A stretch of 64,000 nucleotides of DNA from a phage. The notes beneath the pieces were generated by a model that was not told where the DNA came from, searched no databases, and saw only the letters and a program-made list of their open reading frames with translations. Position 1 is the first letter of the stretch. Every line of letters begins with the position of its first letter. The stretch is from sequence record PZ445439.1; one strand, 5' to 3'. The position numbers were made by a program, and so were the translations under genes. This document shows positions 20,126 through 34,161 of the stretch, piece by piece.

Positions 20126-20133
20126 TATAAATA
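20126..20133 (+). promoter_or_regulatory. late promoter TATAAATA for gene 34
   Basis: exact TATAAATA about 30 nt upstream of gene 34 ATG. Confidence 0.55.
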
Positions 20134-20163: not shown

Positions 20164-23100
20164 ATGGCCGACATCAAACGTAAGTTCAGAGCCGAAGACG
20201 GTCTGGACGCCGGTGGCGACAAGATTGTTAACGTAGCATTAGCCGACCGTACAGTAGGTACTGATGGCGTAAACGTTGACTTCCTGGTACAAGAAAACAC
20301 CGTTCAAGTATATGATTCTACGCGTGGATATAACAAAGGATTTGTTGTTCTTTATGACAACCGTTTATATCAAGCAATAAATGATATCGTGTCTCCTTCC
20401 GGGGCATTTAACCTTTTACAATGGCGTGCAGTTCGTACCGATGCACAATGGATAACTGTCGCTTCTGGGACTTATCAACTTTCTTCAGGTGAATCGATTT
20501 CGGTTAACACTGGTGCCGGCAATGATATGGTTTTCACGTTGCCAAATACGCCGGTTGATGGTGATACTGTTGTTTTGGCTGATATTGGTGGAAGAACCGG
20601 GACAGTTAAAGTACAGATTAACGCGTCTGTGCAGAGTATTTTAAACTTTAGAGGTGAACAAGTTCGTACAGTTTTAATGACGCGCCCACGTTCACAACTA
20701 TTGTTTGTGTTTAGTAATCGTTTGTGGCAGATGTATATTACCGATTATGGTAAAGAATCAATCACTGTTACACCTGCGACACCATATCAAGCACAAGCAA
20801 ATGATTTTATCGTTCGTCGTTTTACTAGTGCAGCACCAATCAACATTACACTTCCACGTAATGCTAACAATGGTGATATAATCAGCCTAGTCGATTTAGA
20901 TAGATTAAACCCACTATATCATACAATTGTTAAAACATTTGATGATACAACGTCTATTGGTGAAGTCGGGACTCATATTGCCGAAGGCAGAAATGACTCT
21001 GACGCGTTTTTTGTTTTTGATGCTGCAAATAGTTTATGGCGTATATGGGAAGGCGACCAGAAATCGCGTCTTCGTATTATCCGTGCGGATTCAAATATTC
21101 GTCCAAATGAAGAAGTTCTTATTTTTGGCACAAATAACGCTACAGCCGGAACTATTAATCTTACGCTGCCTTCCGGAATTTTGAGTGGTGACACTGTTAA
21201 AATTTCAATGAACTACATGCGTAAAGGCCAAACAGTAAAAATTAAAGCTGCCGAAGGTGATACAATTGCTTCTTCTGTTGCATTGCTTCAGTTCCCTAAA
21301 CGTTCTGAATATCCACCTGATGCTCAATGGGTCTCTGTTACTGAACTAGAATTCAATGGCACTACTTCATATGTTCCTGTATTAAAATTAGCATATATCG
21401 AAGACACCGTTGCTGGTACACGTTATTGGGTTGTTCAACAAAACGTCCCAACTGTAGAACGTGTTGATGCTGGAACTGATGCTACACGAGCTCGTTTAGG
21501 TGTTATTGCTCTTGCTACTCAAGCGCAAGCAAATGTTGATTTAGAGAATACTCCAGCTAAAGAAGTTGCTATTACTCCGGAAACATTGGCAAATCGTACA
21601 GCAACTGAAGCTCGACGTGGTATCGCTAAAATTGCCACAACAGCACAAGTTAACCAGAATTCCACAGCATCATTTGTGGACGATACTATTGTTACGCCTA
21701 AAAAACTAAATGAGCGTACAGCAACTGAAACTCGTCGCGGTCTTGCTGAAATTGCTACTCAGGCCGAAACCGATGCCGGTCTTGATGACACAACGATTAT
21801 TACACCTAAGAAATTGCAGGCACGTCAGGGCTCTGAAACACTATCTGGTATAGTTAAATATGTATCAACTACTTCTGCTACTCCTGCTGAAACTCGTGGA
21901 ACCGCAGGCACTAACGTTTATAATAAAACCGTAAATAATTTAACTATTTCTCCTAAAGCCCTTGACCAATATAAAGCAACTTATGCTCAACAAGGTGCGG
22001 TAATTTTAGCTGTTGATAGTGAAGTAATTGCTGGTCAATCACAAGCAGGTTATTCTCATGCTGTAGTAACTCCTGAAACACTACATAAGAAAACTTCTAC
22101 TGATGGACGTATTGGTTTAATTGAAATTGCTACGCAAGCAGAAACTAATGCTGGGACTGATTATACACGCGCAGTAACACCTAAGACGTTAAATGATAGG
22201 AAAGCTACGGAAGGATTATCCGGCATAGCCGAACTTGCTACGCAAGTTGAATTTGATACTGGAACTGATGATACTCGTATCTCGACTCCACTGAAAATTA
22301 AAACTCATTTTGATTCTTCTGACCGTACCAGTGTTAATTCTGATTCCGGACTTATTGAAGAAGGAACCTTGTGGAACCATTATACTCTTGATATTTCTAA
22401 AGCAAATGAAACACAACGCGGTACACTTCGCGTAGCGACACAGGCAGAATCTAATGCAGGAACTTTAGATGATGTTCTTATTACTCCTAAAAAGCTTTTA
22501 GGGACTAAGTCCACTGAAACGTCTGAAGGCGTAATTAAGGTTGCTACTCAGGCTGAAACTGTAACAGGAACTTCTGCTAATACTGCTGTATCTCCTAAGA
22601 ATTTAAAATGGATTGTCCAGAAAGAACCAACATGGGCTGCTACTACAGCAATTCGCGGATTCGTTAAAACTTCATCCGGTTCTATTACATTCGTTGGTAA
22701 TGATACAGTCGGTTCTACACAACCTTTAGAATCATATGAGAAAAATAGCTATGCAGTATCACCATATGAATTAAACCGTGTACTTGCTAACTATTTGCCA
22801 TTGAAAGCTAAAGCCGTAGATAGTAATTTATTAGATGGCCTAGATTCATCTCAGTTCATTCGTAGGGACATTGCACAGACGGTTAATGGTTCACTATCCT
22901 TAACCCAACAAACGAATCTGAGTGCCCCTCTTGTATCAACTAGTACTGCTACGTTTGGTGGTTCAGTTTCGGCAAATAGTACATTAACTATTTCTAACTC
23001 TGGAACAGCTACTCGTCTGATTTTTGAAAAAGGACCTCAAACTGGAACTAACCCAGCACAGACGATGACTATCAGAGTTTGGGGAAATGAATTTGGCGGT

Positions 23101-24039
23101 GGTTCAGATACAACACGTTCTACTGTATTTGAAGTTGGCGATGAAACATCTAATCACTTTTATTCTCAACGTAATAAAGCCGGGAATATAACGTTTAGTA
23201 TCAATGGTACTGTGATGCCAATAAATGTTAACGCTTCAGGCACGTTAAATGCGAATGGCGTTGCAACATTTGGTCGTTCAGTTACAGCCAATGGCGAATT
23301 CATTAGCAAGTCTGCAAATGCTTTCAGAGCAATTAGTGGTGATTACGGATTCTTTATTCGCAATGATGCTACTAACACCTATTTTATGCTTACTGCATCA
23401 GGTGACCAGACTGGCGGATTTAATGGATTACGTCCTTTAGCTATTAACAATGCATCTGGTCAAGTAACGATTGGTGAAAGCTTAATCATTGCTAAAGGTG
23501 CTACTATAAATTCAGGTGGTTTAACAGTTAACTCAAGAATTCGTTCTCAGGGTTCTAAAACTGCTGATTTATACACTCGTGCTCCTACTGCTGATACAGT
23601 CGGATTCTGGTCAATTGACGTCAATGATTCAGCTACATATAACCAATTCCCGGGTTATTTTAAAATGGTTGAAAAAACTAATGAAGTGACTGGACTTCCA
23701 TACTTAGAGCGCGGTGAAGAAGTTAAATCTCCTGGTACGCTGACTCAGTTTGGTAACACACTTGATTCGCTTTACCAAGATTGGATTACTTATCCAACGA
23801 CGCCAGAAGCGCGTACCACTCGCTGGACACGTACATGGCAGAAAACCAAAAACTCTTGGTCAAGTTTTGTTCAGGTATTTGATGGAGGTAACCCTCCTCA
23901 GCCGTCTGATATCGGTGCTTTACCATCTGATAATGCTACAATGGGGAATCTTACTATTCGTGATTTCTTACGAATTGGTAATGTTCGCATTGTTCCTGAC
24001 CCAGTGAATAAAACTGTTAAATTTGAATGGGTTGAATAA
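20164..24039 (+). CDS. 34: gp34 long tail fibre proximal subunit
   Basis: 1291 aa, repetitive fibre sequence, first gene of 34-35-36-37-38 operon. Confidence 0.95.
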   Translation: MADIKRKFRAEDGLDAGGDKIVNVALADRTVGTDGVNVDFLVQENTVQVYDSTRGYNKGFVVLYDNRLYQAINDIVSPSGAFNLLQWRAVRTDAQWITVASGTYQLSSGESISVNTGAGNDMVFTLPNTPVDGDTVVLADIGGRTGTVKVQINASVQSILNFRGEQVRTVLMTRPRSQLLFVFSNRLWQMYITDYGKESITVTPATPYQAQANDFIVRRFTSAAPINITLPRNANNGDIISLVDLDRLNPLYHTIVKTFDDTTSIGEVGTHIAEGRNDSDAFFVFDAANSLWRIWEGDQKSRLRIIRADSNIRPNEEVLIFGTNNATAGTINLTLPSGILSGDTVKISMNYMRKGQTVKIKAAEGDTIASSVALLQFPKRSEYPPDAQWVSVTELEFNGTTSYVPVLKLAYIEDTVAGTRYWVVQQNVPTVERVDAGTDATRARLGVIALATQAQANVDLENTPAKEVAITPETLANRTATEARRGIAKIATTAQVNQNSTASFVDDTIVTPKKLNERTATETRRGLAEIATQAETDAGLDDTTIITPKKLQARQGSETLSGIVKYVSTTSATPAETRGTAGTNVYNKTVNNLTISPKALDQYKATYAQQGAVILAVDSEVIAGQSQAGYSHAVVTPETLHKKTSTDGRIGLIEIATQAETNAGTDYTRAVTPKTLNDRKATEGLSGIAELATQVEFDTGTDDTRISTPLKIKTHFDSSDRTSVNSDSGLIEEGTLWNHYTLDISKANETQRGTLRVATQAESNAGTLDDVLITPKKLLGTKSTETSEGVIKVATQAETVTGTSANTAVSPKNLKWIVQKEPTWAATTAIRGFVKTSSGSITFVGNDTVGSTQPLESYEKNSYAVSPYELNRVLANYLPLKAKAVDSNLLDGLDSSQFIRRDIAQTVNGSLSLTQQTNLSAPLVSTSTATFGGSVSANSTLTISNSGTATRLIFEKGPQTGTNPAQTMTIRVWGNEFGGGSDTTRSTVFEVGDETSNHFYSQRNKAGNITFSINGTVMPINVNASGTLNANGVATFGRSVTANGEFISKSANAFRAISGDYGFFIRNDATNTYFMLTASGDQTGGFNGLRPLAINNASGQVTIGESLIIAKGATINSGGLTVNSRIRSQGSKTADLYTRAPTADTVGFWSIDVNDSATYNQFPGYFKMVEKTNEVTGLPYLERGEEVKSPGTLTQFGNTLDSLYQDWITYPTTPEARTTRWTRTWQKTKNSWSSFVQVFDGGNPPQPSDIGALPSDNATMGNLTIRDFLRIGNVRIVPDPVNKTVKFEWVE

Positions 24040-24047
24040 GAGGTATT

Positions 24048-25163
24048 ATGGAAAAATTTATGGCAGAGTTTGGACAAGGATATGTCCAAACGCCATTTTT
24101 ATCGGAAAGTAATTCAGTAAGATATAAAATAAGTATAGCGGGTTCTTGCCCGCTTTCTACCTCAGGACCATATGTTAAATTTCAGGATAATCCTGTAGGA
24201 AGTCAAACATTTAGCGCAGGTCTTCATTTAAGAGTTTTTGACCCTTCAACAGGAGCATTGGTTGATAGTAAGTCATATGCTTTTTCGACTTCAAATGATA
24301 CTACATCAGCGGCTTTTGTTAGTTTCATGAATTCTTTTTCAAGCAATAGACTTGTTGCTATATTAACTAGCGGAAAGGTTAATTTTCCTCCTGAAGTAGT
24401 ATCTTGGCTAAGAGCTGCAGGAACGTCTGCTTTTCCATCTGATTCTATATTGTCAAGATTCGACGTATCATATGCTGCTTTTTATACTTCTTCTAAAAGA
24501 GCTATCGCACTAGAACATGTTAAACTGAGTAATAGAAAAAGCACAGATGATTATCAAACTATTTTAGATGTTGTATTTGACAGTTTAGAAGATGTTGGAG
24601 CTACCGGGTTTCCAAGAAGAACGTATGAAAGCGTTGAGCAATTTATGTCAGCGGTTGGTGGAACTAATAACGAAATTGCGAGATTACCAACTTCATCCGC
24701 GATAAGTAAACTATCTGACTACAATTTAATTCCTGGCGATGTTCTTTATCTTAAAGCACAACTATACGCTGATGCTGATTTACTTGCTCTTGGAACTACG
24801 AATATATCCATTCGTTTTTATAATGCATCTAATGGATATATTTCCTCGACACAAGCTGAGTTTACCGGAAAAGCTGGGTCTTGGGAATTAAAAGAAGATT
24901 ATGTAGTTGTTCCAGAAAACGCCGTGGGATTTACGATATATGCGCAAAGAACTGCAAAAGCAGGTCAAGGTGGTATGAGAAATTTAAGCTTTTCTGAAGT
25001 GTCAAGAAATGGAGGTATTTCGAAACCTGCTGAGTTTGGCGTCAACGGCATTCGAGTTAATTATGTCTGTGAATCCGCTTCACCTCCGGATATAATGGTA
25101 CTTCCTACGCAATCATCGTCTAAAACTGGTAAAGTATTTGGGCAAGAATTTAGAGAAGTTTAA
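24048..25163 (+). CDS. 35: gp35 long tail fibre hinge protein
   Basis: 371 aa, position after gene 34. Confidence 0.9.
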   Translation: MEKFMAEFGQGYVQTPFLSESNSVRYKISIAGSCPLSTSGPYVKFQDNPVGSQTFSAGLHLRVFDPSTGALVDSKSYAFSTSNDTTSAAFVSFMNSFSSNRLVAILTSGKVNFPPEVVSWLRAAGTSAFPSDSILSRFDVSYAAFYTSSKRAIALEHVKLSNRKSTDDYQTILDVVFDSLEDVGATGFPRRTYESVEQFMSAVGGTNNEIARLPTSSAISKLSDYNLIPGDVLYLKAQLYADADLLALGTTNISIRFYNASNGYISSTQAEFTGKAGSWELKEDYVVVPENAVGFTIYAQRTAKAGQGGMRNLSFSEVSRNGGISKPAEFGVNGIRVNYVCESASPPDIMVLPTQSSSKTGKVFGQEFREV

Positions 25164-25168
25164 ATTGA

Positions 25169-25192
25169 GGGAGCCTTCGGGTTCCCTTTTTC
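25169..25192 (+). terminator. intrinsic terminator after gene 35 (GGGAGCC-UUCG-GGUUCCC then U tract)
   Basis: stem-loop with UUCG loop followed by TTTTTCTTT. Confidence 0.55.
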
Positions 25193-25194
25193 TT

Positions 25195-25202
25195 TATAAA
25201 TA
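25195..25202 (+). promoter_or_regulatory. late promoter TATAAATA for gene 36
   Basis: exact TATAAATA about 24 nt upstream of gene 36 ATG. Confidence 0.55.
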
Positions 25203-25225
25203 CTATTAAAATAAAGGGGCATACA

Positions 25226-25888
25226 ATGGCTGATTTAAAAGTAGGTTCAACAACTGGAGGCTCTGTCATTTGGCATCAAGGAAATTTTCCATTGAATCCA
25301 GCCGGTGACGATGTACTCTATAAATCATTTAAAATATATTCAGAATACAATAAACCACAAGCAGCTGATAACGATTTCGTTTCTAAAGCTAATGGTGGTA
25401 CTTACGCCGCGACTGTTCGATTTAATGGAGGCGTACATGTTCCTACTATAGGTAGTAGTCAACAGTGCGGCGTTTATCCAGGCAACGGTGATGCAGCTAC
25501 TTTTGCTATGGCAAATATTGACATCGTTTCGTGGAATGGTATTGGTTTTAAATCATCACAAGGTTCAGCAGACCGAACTGTTGTAATTAATGCACGTAAT
25601 GGTGATATTAGTACAAAAGGCGTCGTGACAGCAGTAGGTCAAATAAGAAGTAATGCAGTTTCTCCTGTAGCAGCGAATGACCTAACTCGCAAAGATTATG
25701 TTGATGGAGCAATAAATACTGTTACAGCAAATGCGAACTCTAGAGTGTTACGATCTGGCGACACTATGACGGGTAACTTAACCGCACCAAACTTTTTTTC
25801 GCAGAATCCTGCATCTCAACCTTCACACGTTCCACGATTTGACCAAATCGTAATTAAGGATTCTGTTCAAGATTTCGGCTATTATTAA
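25226..25888 (+). CDS. 36: gp36 long tail fibre distal connector
   Basis: 220 aa, position and size as T4 gp36. Confidence 0.9.
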
Positions 25889-25896
25889 GAGGACTT

Positions 25897-28800
25897 ATGG
25901 CTACTTTAAAACAAATACAATTTAAAAGAAGCAAAACCGCAGGTGCACGTCCTGCTGCTTCAGTATTAGCCGAAGGTGAATTGGCTATAAACTTAAAAGA
26001 TAGAACACTTTTTACTAAAGATGATTCAGGAAATATCATCGACTTAAGCATTTCTGCTGGCGGTAGTATCAGTGGAAATATCACTCAAACTGGTGATTAT
26101 TTACAAAATGGAACATATAATCTTAATGGAAACCAGTTTGTTTATGCAGGAAAATATATTGAATTTTTACCTAAAACTGCTGGTAATGGTGCTTGGGCAA
26201 ATCAACACCTAAATAAAGCTCCTATTTTTACGGATTTAAGTTCAACTACTTCCGTTTCAGAATACCATCCGCTAATTAAGCAGCGTTATAAAGATGGGAC
26301 TTTTTCAGCGGGTACATTGGTTGCTGAAGGAAGTTTTAAGATTCATTACATCAATGAATCTGGGGATTCGAAATATTGGACTTTTAATCGTAATGGTAAT
26401 TTCCAAGTTGACACAGGCGATTTATTTGTCAGCAAAGGTAATATTTCCGCTTCAGGCAATATTAATTCAGCTACTGGAATAGTTTCTGCTCCACAGATTA
26501 ATACAAAAACCATAGTTTTTGATACAAAGGCATTCGGACAATACGATTCGCAGTCATTAGTTCAATATGTTTATCCTGGAACAGGTGAAGAAAATGGTAT
26601 AAACTATCTTCGTAAAGTTCGAGCTAAATCAGGCGGAACTATTTACCATGAAATCGCTTCAGCTCAAACCGGTAAGAATGATGAAATTTCTTGGTGGACT
26701 GGAAATTCGCTTACTACTAAATTAATGGGTCTTCGTAATGATGGCGCAATGGTATTACGTCGTTCACTTGCTATTGGCACAATTACCGCTGATGAAAATA
26801 CTAACAACTATGGTTCTCCTACTCCAATGGGAGAAAGATATATTGCTTTGGGTGATGCTGCAACCGGTTTAAAATATATTAAGCAAGGTGTTTATGATTT
26901 AGTAGGTAATTGGAATTCTGTTGCTTCTATTACTCCTGACAGTTTCCGCAGTACTCGCAAAGGTTTATTTGGACGTTCAGAAGACCAAGGCGGAACCTGG
27001 ACAATGCCTGGAACGAACGCTGCTCTCTTGTCTGTTCAAACCCAGGCAGATGTGAATAACGCAGGCGATGGTCAAACCCACATTGGATATAATTCTGGCG
27101 GTAAATTTTCCCATTATTTCCGCGGTAAAGGCCAAACCAACATTAATACGCAGGAAGGTATGGAAATTAACCCTGGTATTTTGAAATTGGTAACTGGCTC
27201 TAATAACGTACAGTTTTATGCTAATGGAACAGTATCTTCAATACAAAGAATTAAATTTGATAACGGATTAGTTCTTACTGGTGCTAGACCTGATGGTATT
27301 CAACTTGATGCGCCTACATCAGTAGATGGCACTAAAACTATACTGTGGGCTGGTGGTACTCGCGCAGGTCAGAATAAAAGTTATGTATCTATTAAAGCGT
27401 GGGGTAATTCATTTAACGCATCTGGCGATCGCACTCGTGAATCAGTTTTTGAAGTAGCTGATGGACAAGGTTATTATTTTTATGCGCAACGTATAGCTCC
27501 TGCACCAGGTTCAACAACTGGAGTAATTCAATTTAGAGTTGCTGGAGCATTATTAACCGGTGGTGGTATTACATCATCTGGTTCTATTGTTACTGAATCA
27601 AGTTTAGTTGCAAATAATGGATTATCTGTAAATGGTCAGGCTAAATTTGGTGGAACGGCAGATGCATTAAGAATTTGGAACGCTGAATATGGTGCTATTT
27701 TCCGTCGTTCAGAAGCATCATTACATATTATCCCGACTCCTAAAGATGCTGGTGAAAGTGGTGGAATAAGTAATCTCCGCCCGCTTAGTATTAGCCTTAA
27801 TAATGGTATGGTGCAAATGCGTCATTCTGTTACGTTAGGCGATGATGGTGCAGGCGGTAATATGGTGACGGTTGATAATGATTCTAAAGTTATGGTAATG
27901 ACGACTAATAGCCGTATTAGTCCTAACTTCCGTATGCAAATTGGACAGTCGTCTTATATTGATGCTGAATGTACTAATGCTGTTAGACCGGCTGGCGCAG
28001 GTTCTTTTGCTTCGCAAAATAATGAAAATGTTCGTGCTCCGTTCTATATGAATATTGATAGAACTGATACTAGTACATATGTTCCAATTGTTAAACAGAG
28101 ATATGTGCAAAATAATAGTTGCTATTCTATCGGTACTTTAATTAATGGTGGTAATTTTAGAGTTCATTATCATGAAGGTGGTGATGGCGGTTCTACTGGC
28201 GCGATTATAAAGGATTTAGGTTGGGAATTTAATAAAAACGGTGATTTTTACTCTCCTGGTAAATTAGGTGCTGGTAATGTTCGTATTGGTACTGATGGTA
28301 ATATCACGGGGGGTTCATTACCTAACTTTGCTAACTTGAACTTGACATTAGATCGTAAAGTCAATACCCGAATGGTTTCTTATTCAGGTACTGGCGGTTG
28401 GTACAAATTAGCCACTGTAACAATGCCACAATCCACTTCAACCGTCACATTCGAAATTGCTGGTGGTAATGGCTATAATGTTAACACCCCACACCAATGC
28501 GTTACTTCGAAAATTGTTTTAAGAACTTCGAACAATAACCCGAAAGGTATTAATGCTGTTGTTTGGTCGATGGATACCGATCAGGGTATTAAGAATGTTG
28601 CAACGGTTAATACATCAGGCGATGTTTATGACATCTATGTAAACGTTGGTACTTATGCTCAGGCGTTAGCAGTTTCTTATTATGCTACTCCTAATGCTAC
28701 CATTAACCAGGTATTTGCAACGGACCAACCGGGTGCAACAGAAACTGCGGTTGAACTTCCTGAGACGGCTATTCAAGGACAGGTTGCTAGTGTTCTGAAT

Positions 28801-29805
28801 AACTTGGCTCTTACCCCGAACGGTGTAAAACGTTATGAAGCCGATTCTGAAATAGCTATTAATAGCCAAACTGGCATTCGTATTAGAAGCAACAGCGATA
28901 AAACTGGTTCTGTTGCTACAATGCTACGAAATGATGGTGGTAGTTTTTATATTCTGTTTACAGATAAAAATGCCACCGATGGCGCAGCAACTGTTAATGG
29001 TGATTGGAATAGTAAACGTCCTTTCGCAATTAACTTAACAACCGGCGAAGTGCTAATGAATAACGGCATAGCTGTTCGCAGCGCTGCTTTATTCTATAAT
29101 AGCATAAACGTCAAAGATAATGGTTCTATTAACTTTGATAAGTCCGGAGCTAACCCAAGAAATATGAGAATATTTCATGCTGGCGATGGCACTCGTGGTA
29201 ATCGCATTGAAATTGCCGATGAAACTAACTATATTGCTTACTTCCAAAAATTACCTGGTGGTCAAAACCAAGTTTCATTCAATAGCGCTACACTTTCTGG
29301 ATTAACACAGTGTAATCAATTTGGTGTTAACACAACAAACGCACTTGGTGGAAACAGTATAACATTTGGTGATACCGATACTGGTATTAAGCAAAATGGC
29401 GATGGATTATTAGACATATATGCGAACAACGTACAAGTGTTCCGTTTCCAAAACGGTGATTTGTACTCATACAAAAATATAAATGCTCCAAACGTTTATA
29501 TTCGTTCTGATATTCGTTTAAAATCCAACTTTAAGCCTATCGAAAATGCACTTGATAAAGTTGAAAAACTTAACGGTGTCATTTACGATAAGGCTGAATA
29601 CATCGGTGGAGATGCAATTGAAACTGAAGCGGGTATTGTGGCTCAAACGTTACAAGACGTTTTACCAGAAGCTGTCCGTGAAACAGAAGACAGTAAGGGT
29701 AATAAAATACTCACTGTTTCTTCTCAAGCCCAGATTGCTCTTCTAGTTGAAGCTGTGAAAACACTTTCTGCTCGTGTAAAAGAACTCGAATCTAAACTTA
29801 TGTAA
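25897..29805 (+). CDS. 37: gp37 long tail fibre distal subunit, T2-type with C-terminal intramolecular chaperone domain
   Basis: 1302 aa; conserved N-terminus; C-terminal ..[17 protein letters not shown].. chaperone-like domain. Confidence 0.95.
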
Positions 29806-29835
29806 AAGAGGGCTTCGTCCCTCTAAGGATTTTTA

Positions 29836-30618
29836 ATGGCAATTGTAGGTGTTCCTGGCTGGATTGGTGAATCTGCCGTGAATGAAACTGGACAACGTTG
29901 GATGGATGCTGCAATGAGAGCAGTCCGTGTTTCAGTTCCTGGTTGGATGAGCTCAATGGCTGGGCAATCTAAAGAGATTCATTATAGCATTGGTGCTAGT
30001 AATTCTTATAATAAAGACACATTAATAAACTGGATAAAAGCCCAAGGAAGTACTCCTGTTGTTATTACTATTACAGGAAATATTGTTTCTCAATCTACTG
30101 GTGTTCCGTGTCTGGATTTCCCTAGTTCGTTGACCAATGCATATGTTACGTTGATCATTAACTCTGGCGTGACTGTCTATGGACGTGGGGGTAATGGTGG
30201 TAGTAACGCTGCCGGTGCTGCTGGTGGTAACGCAATTAATAATGGCATCGGTACACGCTTGCGTATTACGAATAATGGTGCAATCGCTGGCGGCGGCGGC
30301 GGCGGTGGCGGCGGTAACAGGGGTAAACTAATATTTGGTGGTGGCGGTGGTCGCCCATTCGGTGCTGGTGGGTCTTCCTCTCATATGAGTTCCGGTGCAA
30401 CTGCTGGTACTATTTCCGCTCCTGGTAAAGGATCTGTTGGTGAGGGGTCTCTTAGCGCATATACAGGCGGTGCGGGCGGTAACGTTGGTGCTGCTGGAGG
30501 AAGATGTAATACCCAAGGTAACGGTACAGAATATAACGGCGGCGCAGCTGGTAAAGCTGTTACCGGTAATGCTCCAACTTGGACTAAAGTTGGTACAATA
30601 TATGGTTCAAGAGTATAA
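29836..30618 (+). CDS. 38: gp38 tail-fibre tip adhesin, T2-type, with glycine-rich motifs
   Basis: 260 aa with conserved N-terminus and poly-Gly blocks (GGGGGGGGGN.., FGGGGGRPFGAGG). Confidence 0.85.
   Translation: MAIVGVPGWIGESAVNETGQRWMDAAMRAVRVSVPGWMSSMAGQSKEIHYSIGASNSYNKDTLINWIKAQGSTPVVITITGNIVSQSTGVPCLDFPSSLTNAYVTLIINSGVTVYGRGGNGGSNAAGAAGGNAINNGIGTRLRITNNGAIAGGGGGGGGGNRGKLIFGGGGGRPFGAGGSSSHMSSGATAGTISAPGKGSVGEGSLSAYTGGAGGNVGAAGGRCNTQGNGTEYNGGAAGKAVTGNAPTWTKVGTIYGSRV
30289..30316 (+). repeat. (GGC)n-type trinucleotide run encoding poly-Gly in gp38
   Basis: near-perfect GGC/GGT repeats seen directly. Confidence 0.6.
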
Positions 30619-30649
30619 TTTTGAATAAATATCCTTAAAAGGAGGGTCT

Positions 30650-31306
30650 ATGGCAGCACCTAGAATATCATTTTCGCCCTCTGATATTCTGTTTGGTGTT
30701 CTAGATCGCTTGTTCAAAGATAACGCTACCGGGAAAGTTCTTGCTTCCCGGGTAGCTGTCGTAATTCTTTTGTTTATAATGGCGATTGTTTGGTATAGGG
30801 GAGATAGTTTCTTTGAGTACTATAAGCAATCAAAGTATGAAACATACAGTGAAATTATTGAAAAGGAAAGAAATGCACGCTTTGAATCTGTCGCCCTGGA
30901 ACAACTCCAGATAGTTCATATATCATCTGAGGCAGACTTTAGTGCGGTGTATTCTTTCCGCCCTAAAAACTTAAACTATTTTGTCGATATTATAGCATAT
31001 GAAGGAAAATTACCTTCAACAATAAGTGAAAAATCACTTGGAGGATATCCTGTTGATAAAACTATGGATGAATATACAGTTCATTTAAATGGACGTCATT
31101 ATTATTCTGACTCAAAATTTGCTTTTTTACCAACTAAAAAGCCTACTCCCGAAATAAACTACATGTACAGTTGTCCATATTTTAATTTGGATAATATCTA
31201 TGCTGGAACGATAACCATGTACTGGTATAGAAATGATCATATAAGTAATGACCGCCTTGAATCAATATGTTCACAGGCGGCCAGAATATTAGGAAGGGCT
31301 AAATAA
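30650..31306 (+). CDS. t: holin T
   Basis: 218 aa, N-terminal TM segment, matches recalled T4 holin. Confidence 0.9.
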   Translation: MAAPRISFSPSDILFGVLDRLFKDNATGKVLASRVAVVILLFIMAIVWYRGDSFFEYYKQSKYETYSEIIEKERNARFESVALEQLQIVHISSEADFSAVYSFRPKNLNYFVDIIAYEGKLPSTISEKSLGGYPVDKTMDEYTVHLNGRHYYSDSKFAFLPTKKPTPEINYMYSCPYFNLDNIYAGTITMYWYRNDHISNDRLESICSQAARILGRAK

Positions 31307-31579
31307 TTATTTGTTCGTATACATCTCTAGATATCGATATACACCCTCAAAACCCTCGTTGAATTCGTCGATGAGGGTTTTCTTATCTTCTTTGGTTAAT
31401 TCAGAAACAATTTTACGGAATGAATTCTGATTTAATTTTCTACCTTCATGCGTTACTCCAATCTCATTCAGAAATGCAATAAAATTAGCACGATTCTCAA
31501 CAATATCTTCTCTGGAAAATTTAATCAAAATAGACGCAACAGTAATAATTTCACGAACTGTATCAATATTTTTATTCAT
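31307..31579 (-). CDS. asiA: anti-sigma-70 factor AsiA
   Basis: 90 aa, matches recalled T4 AsiA. Confidence 0.9.
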   Translation of the reverse strand: MNKNIDTVREIITVASILIKFSREDIVENRANFIAFLNEIGVTHEGRKLNQNSFRKIVSELTKEDKKTLIDEFNEGFEGVYRYLEMYTNK

Positions 31580-31591
31580 TAACTATACCAC

Positions 31592-31744
31592 TCAATTAGT
31601 TGACTTTGTTATAATATCATCAGACGCTTGATTTGTAAACTGGTCTGTGGTATTTTCTTCAAAAATTTTTTCTACGAATTCCTTGAACGACTCACGTTCC
31701 TGAGCTACATTATGCTCGATTACTTTTTCAAGATTATGACTCAT
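31592..31744 (-). CDS. small acidic hypothetical protein, about 50 aa (below ORF-track cutoff)
   Basis: ATG overlapping arn stop (ATGA); open frame read by eye. Confidence 0.35.
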   Translation of the reverse strand: MSHNLEKVIEHNVAQERESFKEFVEKIFEENTTDQFTNQASDDIITKSTN

Positions 31745-32019
31745 TCGAAATAATCCTCAATTTCATAATCATGGACATAAATCATTATAGTTTTTAATAC
31801 ATCATCAATACTTTTTCCTGGAACTGGAATTACGTAGAAATATCCTGCTTTTGAGAGGTCTTTATAAGTTCCAATCAAGAAATCATTATTCTCAAGATGT
31901 AATTCTTCAACTAATTCATTAACAATTGAATGGTATAGGTTTGGTAGAAACTTATATAGCTTTTCTAGAATATCAATTTTGATTGTGTATTGAACCACAG
32001 ATTGAGAATCAATAATCAT
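31741..32019 (-). CDS. arn: Arn anti-restriction protein (McrBC inhibitor)
   Basis: 92 aa, matches recalled T4 Arn. Confidence 0.85.
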   Translation of the reverse strand: MIIDSQSVVQYTIKIDILEKLYKFLPNLYHSIVNELVEELHLENNDFLIGTYKDLSKAGYFYVIPVPGKSIDDVLKTIMIYVHDYEIEDYFE

Positions 32020-32102
32020 AGACCTTCCCCTTATGTTTCTGTTTGCGATTAGATTCTTTAAACGCTTTCTTCTTATCCTTATGAACAGAAGCTTTATTAA
32101 AA

Positions 32103-32321
32103 TTATGTTTTGCGACTAAATTGTTCATAGTGCTGAATTACCTCTCTTAAACATTTGCATGTGAATGAAAACTTTTTAGCTACACCACATTCAAATATAT
32201 GTTCTCTTAAATCACGTGTATCAGTATATCCCATCTCGACGATAAAGTGCCGTATTAGATTTTTATCTTTATCATTTAGAGAATTAAAATAATCAGATTT
32301 TGAATTAATTTCCCTGGCCAA
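32103..32321 (-). CDS. hypothetical protein, 72 aa (track start looks like TTG; true start uncertain)
   Basis: track ORF; no upstream in-frame ATG seen. Confidence 0.35.
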   Translation of the reverse strand: MAREINSKSDYFNSLNDKDKNLIRHFIVEMGYTDTRDLREHIFECGVAKKFSFTCKCLREVIQHYEQFSRKT

Positions 32322-32601
32322 GTTGAATCACCTTCAGTTGACGTTTTAGTTCTTTTATCATTTCTTCGTTCATCGCAATATAAAGATCGCGTAAAGCAGG
32401 TTTTAGCATTCCATTTACTGGAGAACTAAATGGGCACACATAATCTTTTCCTACGAGCTTTTTAGTGAATTCCATGTTACAGAACTGAAATGCCGGTTCA
32501 TTGGTATAAATTCCCCAATTAGTTGACATCATTTTATTAGCATATTCCAGAGCATTGATTTGATTCATAATTCCATCAATTTGAAACTTTTTAATATTCA
32601 T
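32305..32601 (-). CDS. hypothetical protein, 98 aa
   Basis: track ORF, ATG start. Confidence 0.45.
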   Translation of the reverse strand: MNIKKFQIDGIMNQINALEYANKMMSTNWGIYTNEPAFQFCNMEFTKKLVGKDYVCPFSSPVNGMLKPALRDLYIAMNEEMIKELKRQLKVIQLGQGN

Positions 32602-33062
32602 TAGTAAAGGTCCTCAGAGTAAAGTTCTTTTTCACTACCACCACGTTCAATACGTACTTGTCCAGCGTAAGTTGCAATAATCATTGCTTCTTCACGTGTC
32701 CAATAATTACTATATTGGTCAATAAACCCTTGGTCATCATCGCAAACTTGTTGAGTAACTAATTGAGGTTTAACTACATCTAAAACTTCTGCCATATCTT
32801 TAGAATAATGACGAGCACCTGGAATAATAAGAGTTCGTCCATCTTTTAATTTAAAACGATTAGCTGCACAGACAATTCGTCGTTGATACTTTTGGTTTTC
32901 ATCCCAGTACGCAGTCTGCCAACAGATTTCAGGAACTTCTTTCAGAATATCTTCTTCTGTGCATTTATAACCATGCGCTTTAAATTTTTGAACAAGGCTT
33001 TCCGGAGTCTCACGAGATAAAGGAACATTTAGCATTTTTAAACGATTGATAAATGGGTTCAT
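32601..33062 (-). CDS. hypothetical protein, 153 aa
   Basis: track ORF, ATG start. Confidence 0.5.
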
Positions 33063-34130: not shown

Positions 34131-34156
34131 AAAAAAGGGAGAGCCTCGGCTCTCCC
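34131..34156 (-). terminator. intrinsic terminator (9 bp inverted repeat GGGAGAGCC/GGCUCUCCC then U tract)
   Basis: perfect palindrome followed by U run on minus-strand RNA, just after small ORF 34162..34311. Confidence 0.5.
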
Positions 34157-34161
34157 TAAAA

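Follow-up and report, generated by a model that had tools for sequence, protein, structure and literature searches.

In a window of 64,000 nucleotides (nt) of phage DNA (record PZ445439.1), gene t, a late gene for the holin, and the early gene asiA converge with directly abutting stop codons, and each gene carries, within its last codons, a stable hairpin that lies downstream of the stop codon of the other gene and on the strand that is transcribed from it. These hairpins are rare in the window, exceed what the encoded proteins require, are strand-asymmetric, and have equivalents that recur in related phages. We consider it probable that they are interdigitated, strand-specific 3'-end signals, each placed in the final codons of the opposite gene, which confine the two convergent transcripts to a short overlap. 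From their sequence we infer that in infected cells they would terminate transcription or stabilize 3' ends, and how efficient they would be.

The window is a segment of a Tequatrovirus (T4/T2-like) genome, from a T2-like relative. Gene t encodes the T holin of 218 amino acids (aa; 30650..31306, plus strand) and asiA the early anti-sigma-70 factor of 90 aa (31307..31579, minus strand). Both were taken from the list of open reading frames (ORFs) and identified by full-length profile matches (PF11031, Phage_holin_T, E=6e-118; PF09010, AsiA, E=9e-42), and their protein lengths, positions and gene order agree with those of T4. Positions 31300-31309 read TAAATAATTA, in which the t stop codon TAA occupies 31304-31306 and the asiA stop codon (TAA, plus-strand TTA) 31307-31309; the two stops form the palindrome TAATTA (31304..31309) with a gap of 0 nt. 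An earlier note on this DNA had described the two genes as convergent with directly abutting stops, and the sequence, the ORFs, the Pfam matches and the T4 layout all agree with that description. Over 30600-31800 the window shares 98.8% identity with Escherichia phage vB_EcoM-UFV13, and the t/asiA locus has matches over at least 80% of its length, at 95-99% identity, in 493 phage records. T4 itself (NC_000866/AF158101) has t at 160221..160877 and asiA at complement 160878..161150, in the same orientation and with the same gap of 0 nt, and both hairpin regions are essentially identical to those of the window. There is no structural difference at the junction, the window differing upstream of it by a T2-type gp38 adhesin; the T4 reference records annotate no terminator at t/asiA. 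The plus-strand genes of the window form a single island (34, 35, 36, 37, 38 and t; 20164..31306) with minus-strand genes on both sides. As t is the final gene of this island, the entire late unit of tail-fibre and lysis genes ends at the t/asiA junction.

The t-sense hairpin (31349..31381, plus strand) was found by a terminator scan and by folding, and lies within asiA, 43-75 nt downstream of the t stop codon, where it covers asiA codons 67-77 (KTLIDEFNEGF). It consists of 14 base pairs (bp), including two G.U pairs, and a 5-nt loop (AAAACCCTCGTTGA-ATTCG-TCGATGAGGGTTTT), with a folding energy of -18.6 kcal/mol. Its GC core (31353..31377) comprises 10 bp and accounts for -13.6 kcal/mol, and there is an A-tract upstream of the stem. 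The U-rich tail that follows, TTTTCTTATCTTCTT (31378..31392, plus strand), has a tail score of -4.94, against a background mean of -2.29 and with 0.2% of positions equally good; the consensus terminator scan gives CTTATCTTCT directly after the hairpin. Clean intergenic terminators elsewhere in the window have comparable scores (-5.27 and -4.83); the former of these, at 34136..34157, was the positive reference for tail scoring. On the opposite, asiA-sense strand the same segment reaches -11.6 kcal/mol, which is 7 kcal/mol weaker, an asymmetry with p=0.0017 in comparison with the resampled null described below. The element 31349..31392 thus has the sequence properties of a terminator: a GC-rich stem, a U-tract, a position downstream of the stop codon and strand specificity. 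Beyond 31381, no plus-strand terminator-like signal of comparable strength is found for more than 4 kilobases (kb), so that this element is the one that matters. The hairpin and its tail are invariant in T4 and in four other Tequatrovirus records, and the depositors of vB_Eco_NR1 and vB_EcoM_SP1 annotated the hairpin as a terminator. The 3' end of the late transcript is predicted at about 31385-31392, roughly 80-86 nt beyond the t stop.

The asiA-sense hairpin (31249..31283, minus strand) was found by folding and lies inside t, 24-58 nt past the asiA stop, over t codons 200-212 (NDRLESICSQAAR). It pairs TGGCCGCCTG-TGAAC...TCAAGGCGGTCA with -18.0 kcal/mol and is followed on the minus strand by TTACTTATAT. 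Its tail, TTACTTATATGATCA (31234..31248, minus strand), scores -3.51, which is in the top 6% of the background; as a U-tract it is weaker than the tail of the t-sense hairpin. On the opposite strand the hairpin reaches -14.9 kcal/mol, an asymmetry of -3.1 kcal/mol (p=0.08). In the element as a whole (31283..31234), a stable stem-loop rich in GC follows the asiA stop on the transcribed strand; the hairpin is annotated as a rho-independent terminator in vB_EcoM_SA20RB. Across lineages it usually falls on the conserved T-holin motif RL..IC.QA, whose codons are able to pair, and a hairpin recurs there in many genera. The 3' end of the early asiA transcript is predicted at about 31240-31245, some 62-67 nt beyond the asiA stop.

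To determine how unusual these structures are, we used a census of compact hairpins (up to 36 nt, threshold -18 kcal/mol) in the 128 strand-kb of the window, as a census with 55-nt windows, which gave 231 hairpins of -14 kcal/mol or lower, was not selective enough. Only 9 compact hairpins reach the threshold, and 2 of these 9 flank the t/asiA junction, each on the downstream-of-stop strand. The contribution of the protein sequences was evaluated by synonymous resampling, in which the amino-acid sequence is fixed, the codons are redrawn from the usage of the phage itself, and the most stable antisense hairpin within the final 40 codons is recorded. For asiA, an antisense hairpin of -18.6 kcal/mol was reached in 0/2000 resamplings (mean -5.0), and for t one of -18.0 kcal/mol was reached in 1/2000 (mean -8.1). 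With permutation of synonymous codons within each gene, the stability of the t-sense hairpin was reached in 10/2000 cases at the asiA 3' end, and that of the asiA-sense hairpin in 2/2000 at the t 3' end. The strand asymmetry comes from G.U pairs and is therefore a property of the RNA and not of the DNA, for which reason we rejected a DNA-level palindrome as the origin of the hairpins. We also rejected the possibility that the hairpins are elements of the messenger of the gene that houses them, because they are weaker on that strand and would be unwound there by translating ribosomes. A scan of 29500-33000 against Rfam at E<=1 gave no matches.

The spacing of the junction was surveyed in GenBank representatives and in 68 IMG/VR loci. 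The stop-to-stop gap is 0 nt in Tequatro-, Mosig- (RB69), Marfa- and Jiaodavirus-like phages and in Acinetobacter Lazarus-like phages, and -4 nt, with overlapping TTAA/TTAG stops, in Dhaka- and Gaprivervirus-like and other phages; the remaining lineages have gaps of -8, +1, +3, +8, +11/12, +17 or +26 nt. An extra ORF between t and asiA is present only in distant Aeromonas and Serratia clades. In the loci with the 4-nt overlap (L008, L015, L048-L055 and others, Dhaka-/Gaprivervirus-like) the two stops share 2 nt, and in one lineage (L039) the genes overlap by 8 nt, which shows that the spacing can shrink even below zero. Judged from these sequences, the tight t/asiA junction is conserved rather than due to chance.

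The recurrence of the hairpins was then evaluated in 23 lineage representatives, phylogenetically related but less than 88% identical to each other across the junction. At the t 3' end, 14/23 lineages have a significant asiA-sense hairpin at p<=0.05 (11 at p<=0.01), and at the asiA 3' end 11/23 have a significant t-sense hairpin (8 at p<=0.01). The corresponding controls gave 5/69 for asiA-sense hairpins in the t interior and 2/23 for t-sense hairpins in the 5' part of asiA, with 0 at p<=0.01 in both cases. The control rates are thus 7-9%, and the difference between 3' ends and controls is significant by Fisher's test for the asiA-sense (4e-7) and the t-sense (0.007) hairpins. The downstream-of-stop strand is the stabler one in 12/14 (asiA-sense) and 10/11 (t-sense) of the significant lineages. 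The tails that follow the asiA-sense hairpins are, across lineages, U-richer than the matched background (p=2e-4), and clear T-runs (TTTTTTCTATC, TTTTGTTATA and TTCTTTTATA) accompany the homologous hairpins of several other genera. The t-sense hairpin lies at +43..+75 past the t stop in Tequatrovirus, at +5..+42 in the Dhaka/Gapriver type and at +92..+126 in Marfavirus. In the three lineages with spacers of 8, 17 and 26 nt, the hairpin lies in the spacer and none is embedded, so that spacer and embedded hairpins show a complementary distribution. In the Winklervirus LC53-like loci (L016/L028) and in L027, a tetraloop hairpin, GG(G)AGAC-TTCG-GTCTC(C)C, fills the spacer of 17-26 nt and is about equally stable on the two strands, a single element of bidirectional type in place of the two embedded hairpins.

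Regarding the promoters that feed the two units, a pattern search found no exact T4 late-promoter box directly upstream of t. The nearest exact box upstream, TATAAATA, lies ahead of gene 36 in the ORF map (25195..25202, plus strand), and another one lies ahead of gene 34 (20126..20133, plus strand). Late transcripts that reach t probably start at the 25195..25202 box. With 8 boxes observed and 8.8 expected, the window has no more of them than chance would give, and so this assignment relies on the position of the box and on established knowledge of T4 late promoters. Upstream of asiA, a promoter scan identified a sigma-70/T4-early-type promoter-like site (31611..31639, minus strand), TTTACA-17-TATTAT with an extended TG, which has 10/12 matches; the homologous site in vB_EcoM_SA20RB is annotated by its depositors as T4-early-promoter-like. 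The site sits within asiA.1, a 50-aa ORF (31592..31744, minus strand) without a Pfam match, and would be a further regulatory signal embedded in coding sequence at this locus.

These observations suggest the following sequence of events. With no spacer at the convergent junction, both 3'-end signals would have moved into the neighbouring coding sequences. Late RNA polymerase, arriving through 36-37-38-t, would cross the t stop and copy the antisense of asiA until, 43-75 nt further on, the hairpin and the U-rich tract form, and most polymerases would terminate at about 31385-31392. In the other direction, early polymerase would cross the asiA stop, form the hairpin from the antisense of t codons 200-212 and end at about 31240-31245. 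Each hairpin begins at least 24 nt past the preceding stop and should clear the terminating ribosome, and the G.U pairs make each hairpin weaker on the opposite strand, which is the one translated. The two transcripts would then be complementary to each other over a short stretch of some 150 nt at their 3' ends, and late antisense transcription would be largely kept out of the early region (asiA.1, arn, motA and beyond).

The 0-nt gap does mean that a late transcript that continues past t is necessarily antisense to part of asiA, as the earlier note had stated. Its remark that there is no intergenic terminator is literally right, since there is no intergenic DNA, but is misleading, as terminator-like elements are present inside both coding regions. 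Its further claim, that late transcripts run through asiA into the early genes beyond, is not supported, and the idea that nothing stops them is contradicted by the sequence, given the strong strand-specific hairpin with a U-tract located 43-75 nt into asiA. The predicted antisense overlap covers about 85 nt of asiA, or about 150 nt with both 3' ends, and not the whole early region, and if late transcripts do help in early shut-off, they would do so only at the 3' end of asiA or through the fraction that reads through. A late 3' end exactly at the t stop is unrealistic, because a terminator hairpin needs tens of nt after the stop.

Several points weigh against the interpretation of the hairpins as 3'-end signals. 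The asiA-sense tail of the window is no more than moderately U-rich (-3.51), and the asiA-sense hairpin is missing in 9/23 lineages. Outside Tequatrovirus, the t-sense hairpins are mostly without U-rich tails and their positions differ, so they may not be canonical intrinsic terminators. Pairing of the asiA-sense helix is 58-60% in two adjacent registers, against 30-40% at other offsets, and the covariation score was reached by 18/500 and 217/500 shuffles, so that a single family-wide helix is unsupported. The 23 lineages are related by descent and are not fully independent replicates. Transcript 3' ends for the t/asiA junction were not found in the literature searched, although earlier descriptions may exist, and the efficiency of the terminators could be well below 100%, allowing some read-through.

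The same covariation result is among the arguments for regarding the hairpins as mere by-products of coding constraint or of DNA palindromes, with no function as RNA, for example because the codons of RL..IC.QA happen to be reverse complementary. The asiA-sense hairpin does lie on this conserved peptide motif, the codon families of which can pair (CGN-YTN with CAR-GCN), and the fixed-register covariation scores were reached by the shuffles just mentioned. However, protein-preserving resampling almost never yields such hairpins, the interior controls behave at the nominal rate, the G.U-derived strand asymmetry belongs to the RNA and not to the DNA, and spacer and embedded hairpins are complementary in their distribution, all of which makes this explanation very improbable. 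Selected RNA structures could also serve as something other than terminators, by protecting against 3'-to-5' exonucleases or by pausing the polymerase, with Rho-dependent or collision-driven termination further on and subsequent trimming. This would suit the many lineages that have significant hairpins without U-rich tails, as is the case for most t-sense hairpins in genera other than Tequatrovirus and for the asiA-sense hairpin in the RB69-like, L030 and L032 lineages, and convergent genes of E. coli reportedly use a hairpin-dependent, collision-assisted bidirectional termination that is unlike intrinsic terminators. The t-sense element of the window has, nevertheless, a canonical GC stem and a U-tract equal to that of intergenic terminators. 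Head-on collisions are limited, since the T4 programme runs early and late transcription at largely different times. We regard this possibility as unlikely; under it the mature 3' end would be in the same position as under termination at the hairpins.

In the scenario of the earlier note, there is effectively no termination after t, and late antisense transcription through asiA and the early genes aids shut-off, either by interference or through double-stranded RNA (dsRNA) and RNase III cleavage. There is indeed no intergenic DNA, and every late transcript overlaps asiA; with no other strong plus-strand signal for more than 4 kb, read-through would go far. In bacteria, overlapping convergent transcripts cause interference and RNase III-dependent decay, as described for excludons (PMC12288877) and by capture of dsRNA in E. 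coli. The sequence instead has a strong, selected, strand-specific hairpin with a good U-tract 43-75 nt into asiA, and other mechanisms of T4 early shut-off are documented, such as the cleavage of early mRNAs by RegB. Untranslated antisense RNA is, moreover, a typical substrate of Rho in E. coli. We therefore find this scenario rather improbable. No strand-specific antisense analysis or dsRNA data for the T4 t/asiA junction were found in the literature searched, and the T4 omics paper PMC9697503 makes no mention of antisense or of the holin. It is also conceivable, but doubtful in our view, that the junction is a conserved excludon-like timing module, in which the overlap itself, and not only termination, is selected. 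The 3' untranslated region (UTR) of about 65 nt of the abundant early asiA mRNA, antisense to roughly the final 20 codons of t, would then pair with premature holin mRNA and lead to its decay, as a guard against early lysis, and the late t mRNA, with a 3' UTR of about 85 nt antisense to asiA codons 64-90, would speed the clearance of residual asiA mRNA. If true, this would explain why the junction is kept at -8 to +26 nt across Straboviridae genera.

Interpreted as 3'-end signals, the two elements are like the Rho-independent terminators of E. coli and its phages, in that a GC-rich stem-loop and a U-rich tract follow shortly after the stop on the transcribed strand, but differ from ordinary ones in being wholly inside the coding sequence of a convergent gene, and so doubly constrained, by protein and by RNA; the U-tract of the asiA-sense element is, besides, no more than moderate. 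Overlapping bidirectional terminators between convergent genes of E. coli were described in SEnd-seq work (bioRxiv 10.1101/2022.10.23.513370). The window resembles them in having a convergent pair with overlapping 3' ends (predicted here) and hairpin-dependent 3' boundaries. The E. coli type is one shared element, whereas the window has two strand-specific hairpins about 65 nt apart; one shared hairpin serving both directions was not found in the window, as 31249-31283 and 31349-31381 are distinct and each is weaker on the other strand. Also in contrast to the E. coli type, the t-sense element looks like a canonical intrinsic terminator, and the temporal separation of the two units makes collisions unlikely as the main driver. 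The relatives with spacers (e.g., Winklervirus LC53), with their single spacer hairpin, do resemble the bidirectional type. In excludons, the UTRs of neighbouring genes overlap and lead to mutually exclusive expression (PMC12288877). The t/asiA junction is similar in that its two genes converge, belong to opposite regulatory classes and are predicted to have 3' ends that are complementary, and this framework is the nearest to the idea of the earlier note. In the junction, however, the predicted overlap is short (about 150 nt, 3' ends only) and no long antisense transcript over the neighbouring gene is predicted, which sets it apart from excludons.

Nolan et al. 2006 (PMC1524935) reported that T4-like phages conserve terminators at fixed places in the genome, among them one that separates genes 35 and 36 and a bidirectional one at another convergent junction, after uvsW.1. 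Their TransTerm survey lists none at t/asiA in RB69, 44RR, RB49 and RB43, and in Aeh1 only an intergenic bidirectional one beside asiA, so the embedded t/asiA elements were apparently missed by it. The abutting stops were already known from the T4 map; what is added here is that terminator-like elements are embedded in the convergent neighbour, and that this arrangement is replicated across T4-like genera.

Other hairpins were observed in the window. A third rare compact one, GCTACCGGGAAAGTTCTTGCTTCCCGGGTAGC (30725..30756), of about -18 kcal/mol on both strands, lies within t itself at about codons 26-36 (ATGKVLASRVA), ahead of the codons for a hydrophobic part of the holin. In synonymous resampling, its stability was reached in 0/1000 cases in the t-sense and in 1/1000 on the opposite strand. 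A hairpin at these codons recurs in many genera with different stem sequences, and is usually 3-5 kcal/mol stabler in the t-sense; fixed-register covariation supports no family-wide homologous helix there. It may be a conserved structure of the holin mRNA, or may act as a back-up that stops early transcripts which have read through. Near the ORF boundary 24039/24048, a hairpin at 24061..24095 has -16.7 and -17.6 kcal/mol on the two strands and a plus-strand T-tail, TTTTTATCGG, with a score of -4.83; its position fits the conserved gene 35/36 terminator reported in PMC1524935. The positive reference for tail scoring (34136..34157, minus strand) is a perfect 9-bp GC-rich hairpin, AGGGAGAGC-CGAG-GCTCTCCCT, followed by TTTTTATTTC with a tail score of -5.27. 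It lies about 100 nt upstream of the motA start codon, as a textbook intergenic terminator for the upstream early unit. The apparent hairpins formed by GGC repeats at 30277..30495 coincide with consecutive glycine codons of gene 38. This gene (29836..30618) encodes a T2-type tail-fibre adhesin of 260 aa (Pfam GP38, Gp38_N), as opposed to the 183-aa gp38 assembly factor of the T4 type, which makes the phage T2-like in its receptor-recognition module.

The ends of the late tail-fibre/lysis unit and of the asiA early unit thus appear to be set by terminator-like hairpins, for which each unit uses synonymous sites in the gene opposite. Terminator prediction that concentrates on intergenic DNA seems to overlook elements embedded in this way, which bears on the annotation of transcription units in compact phage genomes, and also on how synonymous-site conservation in t and asiA is read. 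For phage engineering this calls for caution, as recoding or deleting the 3' end of either asiA or t could remove the terminator of the other gene. If termination is efficient, late antisense transcription would be kept out of the early region, the reverse of what the earlier note had proposed.

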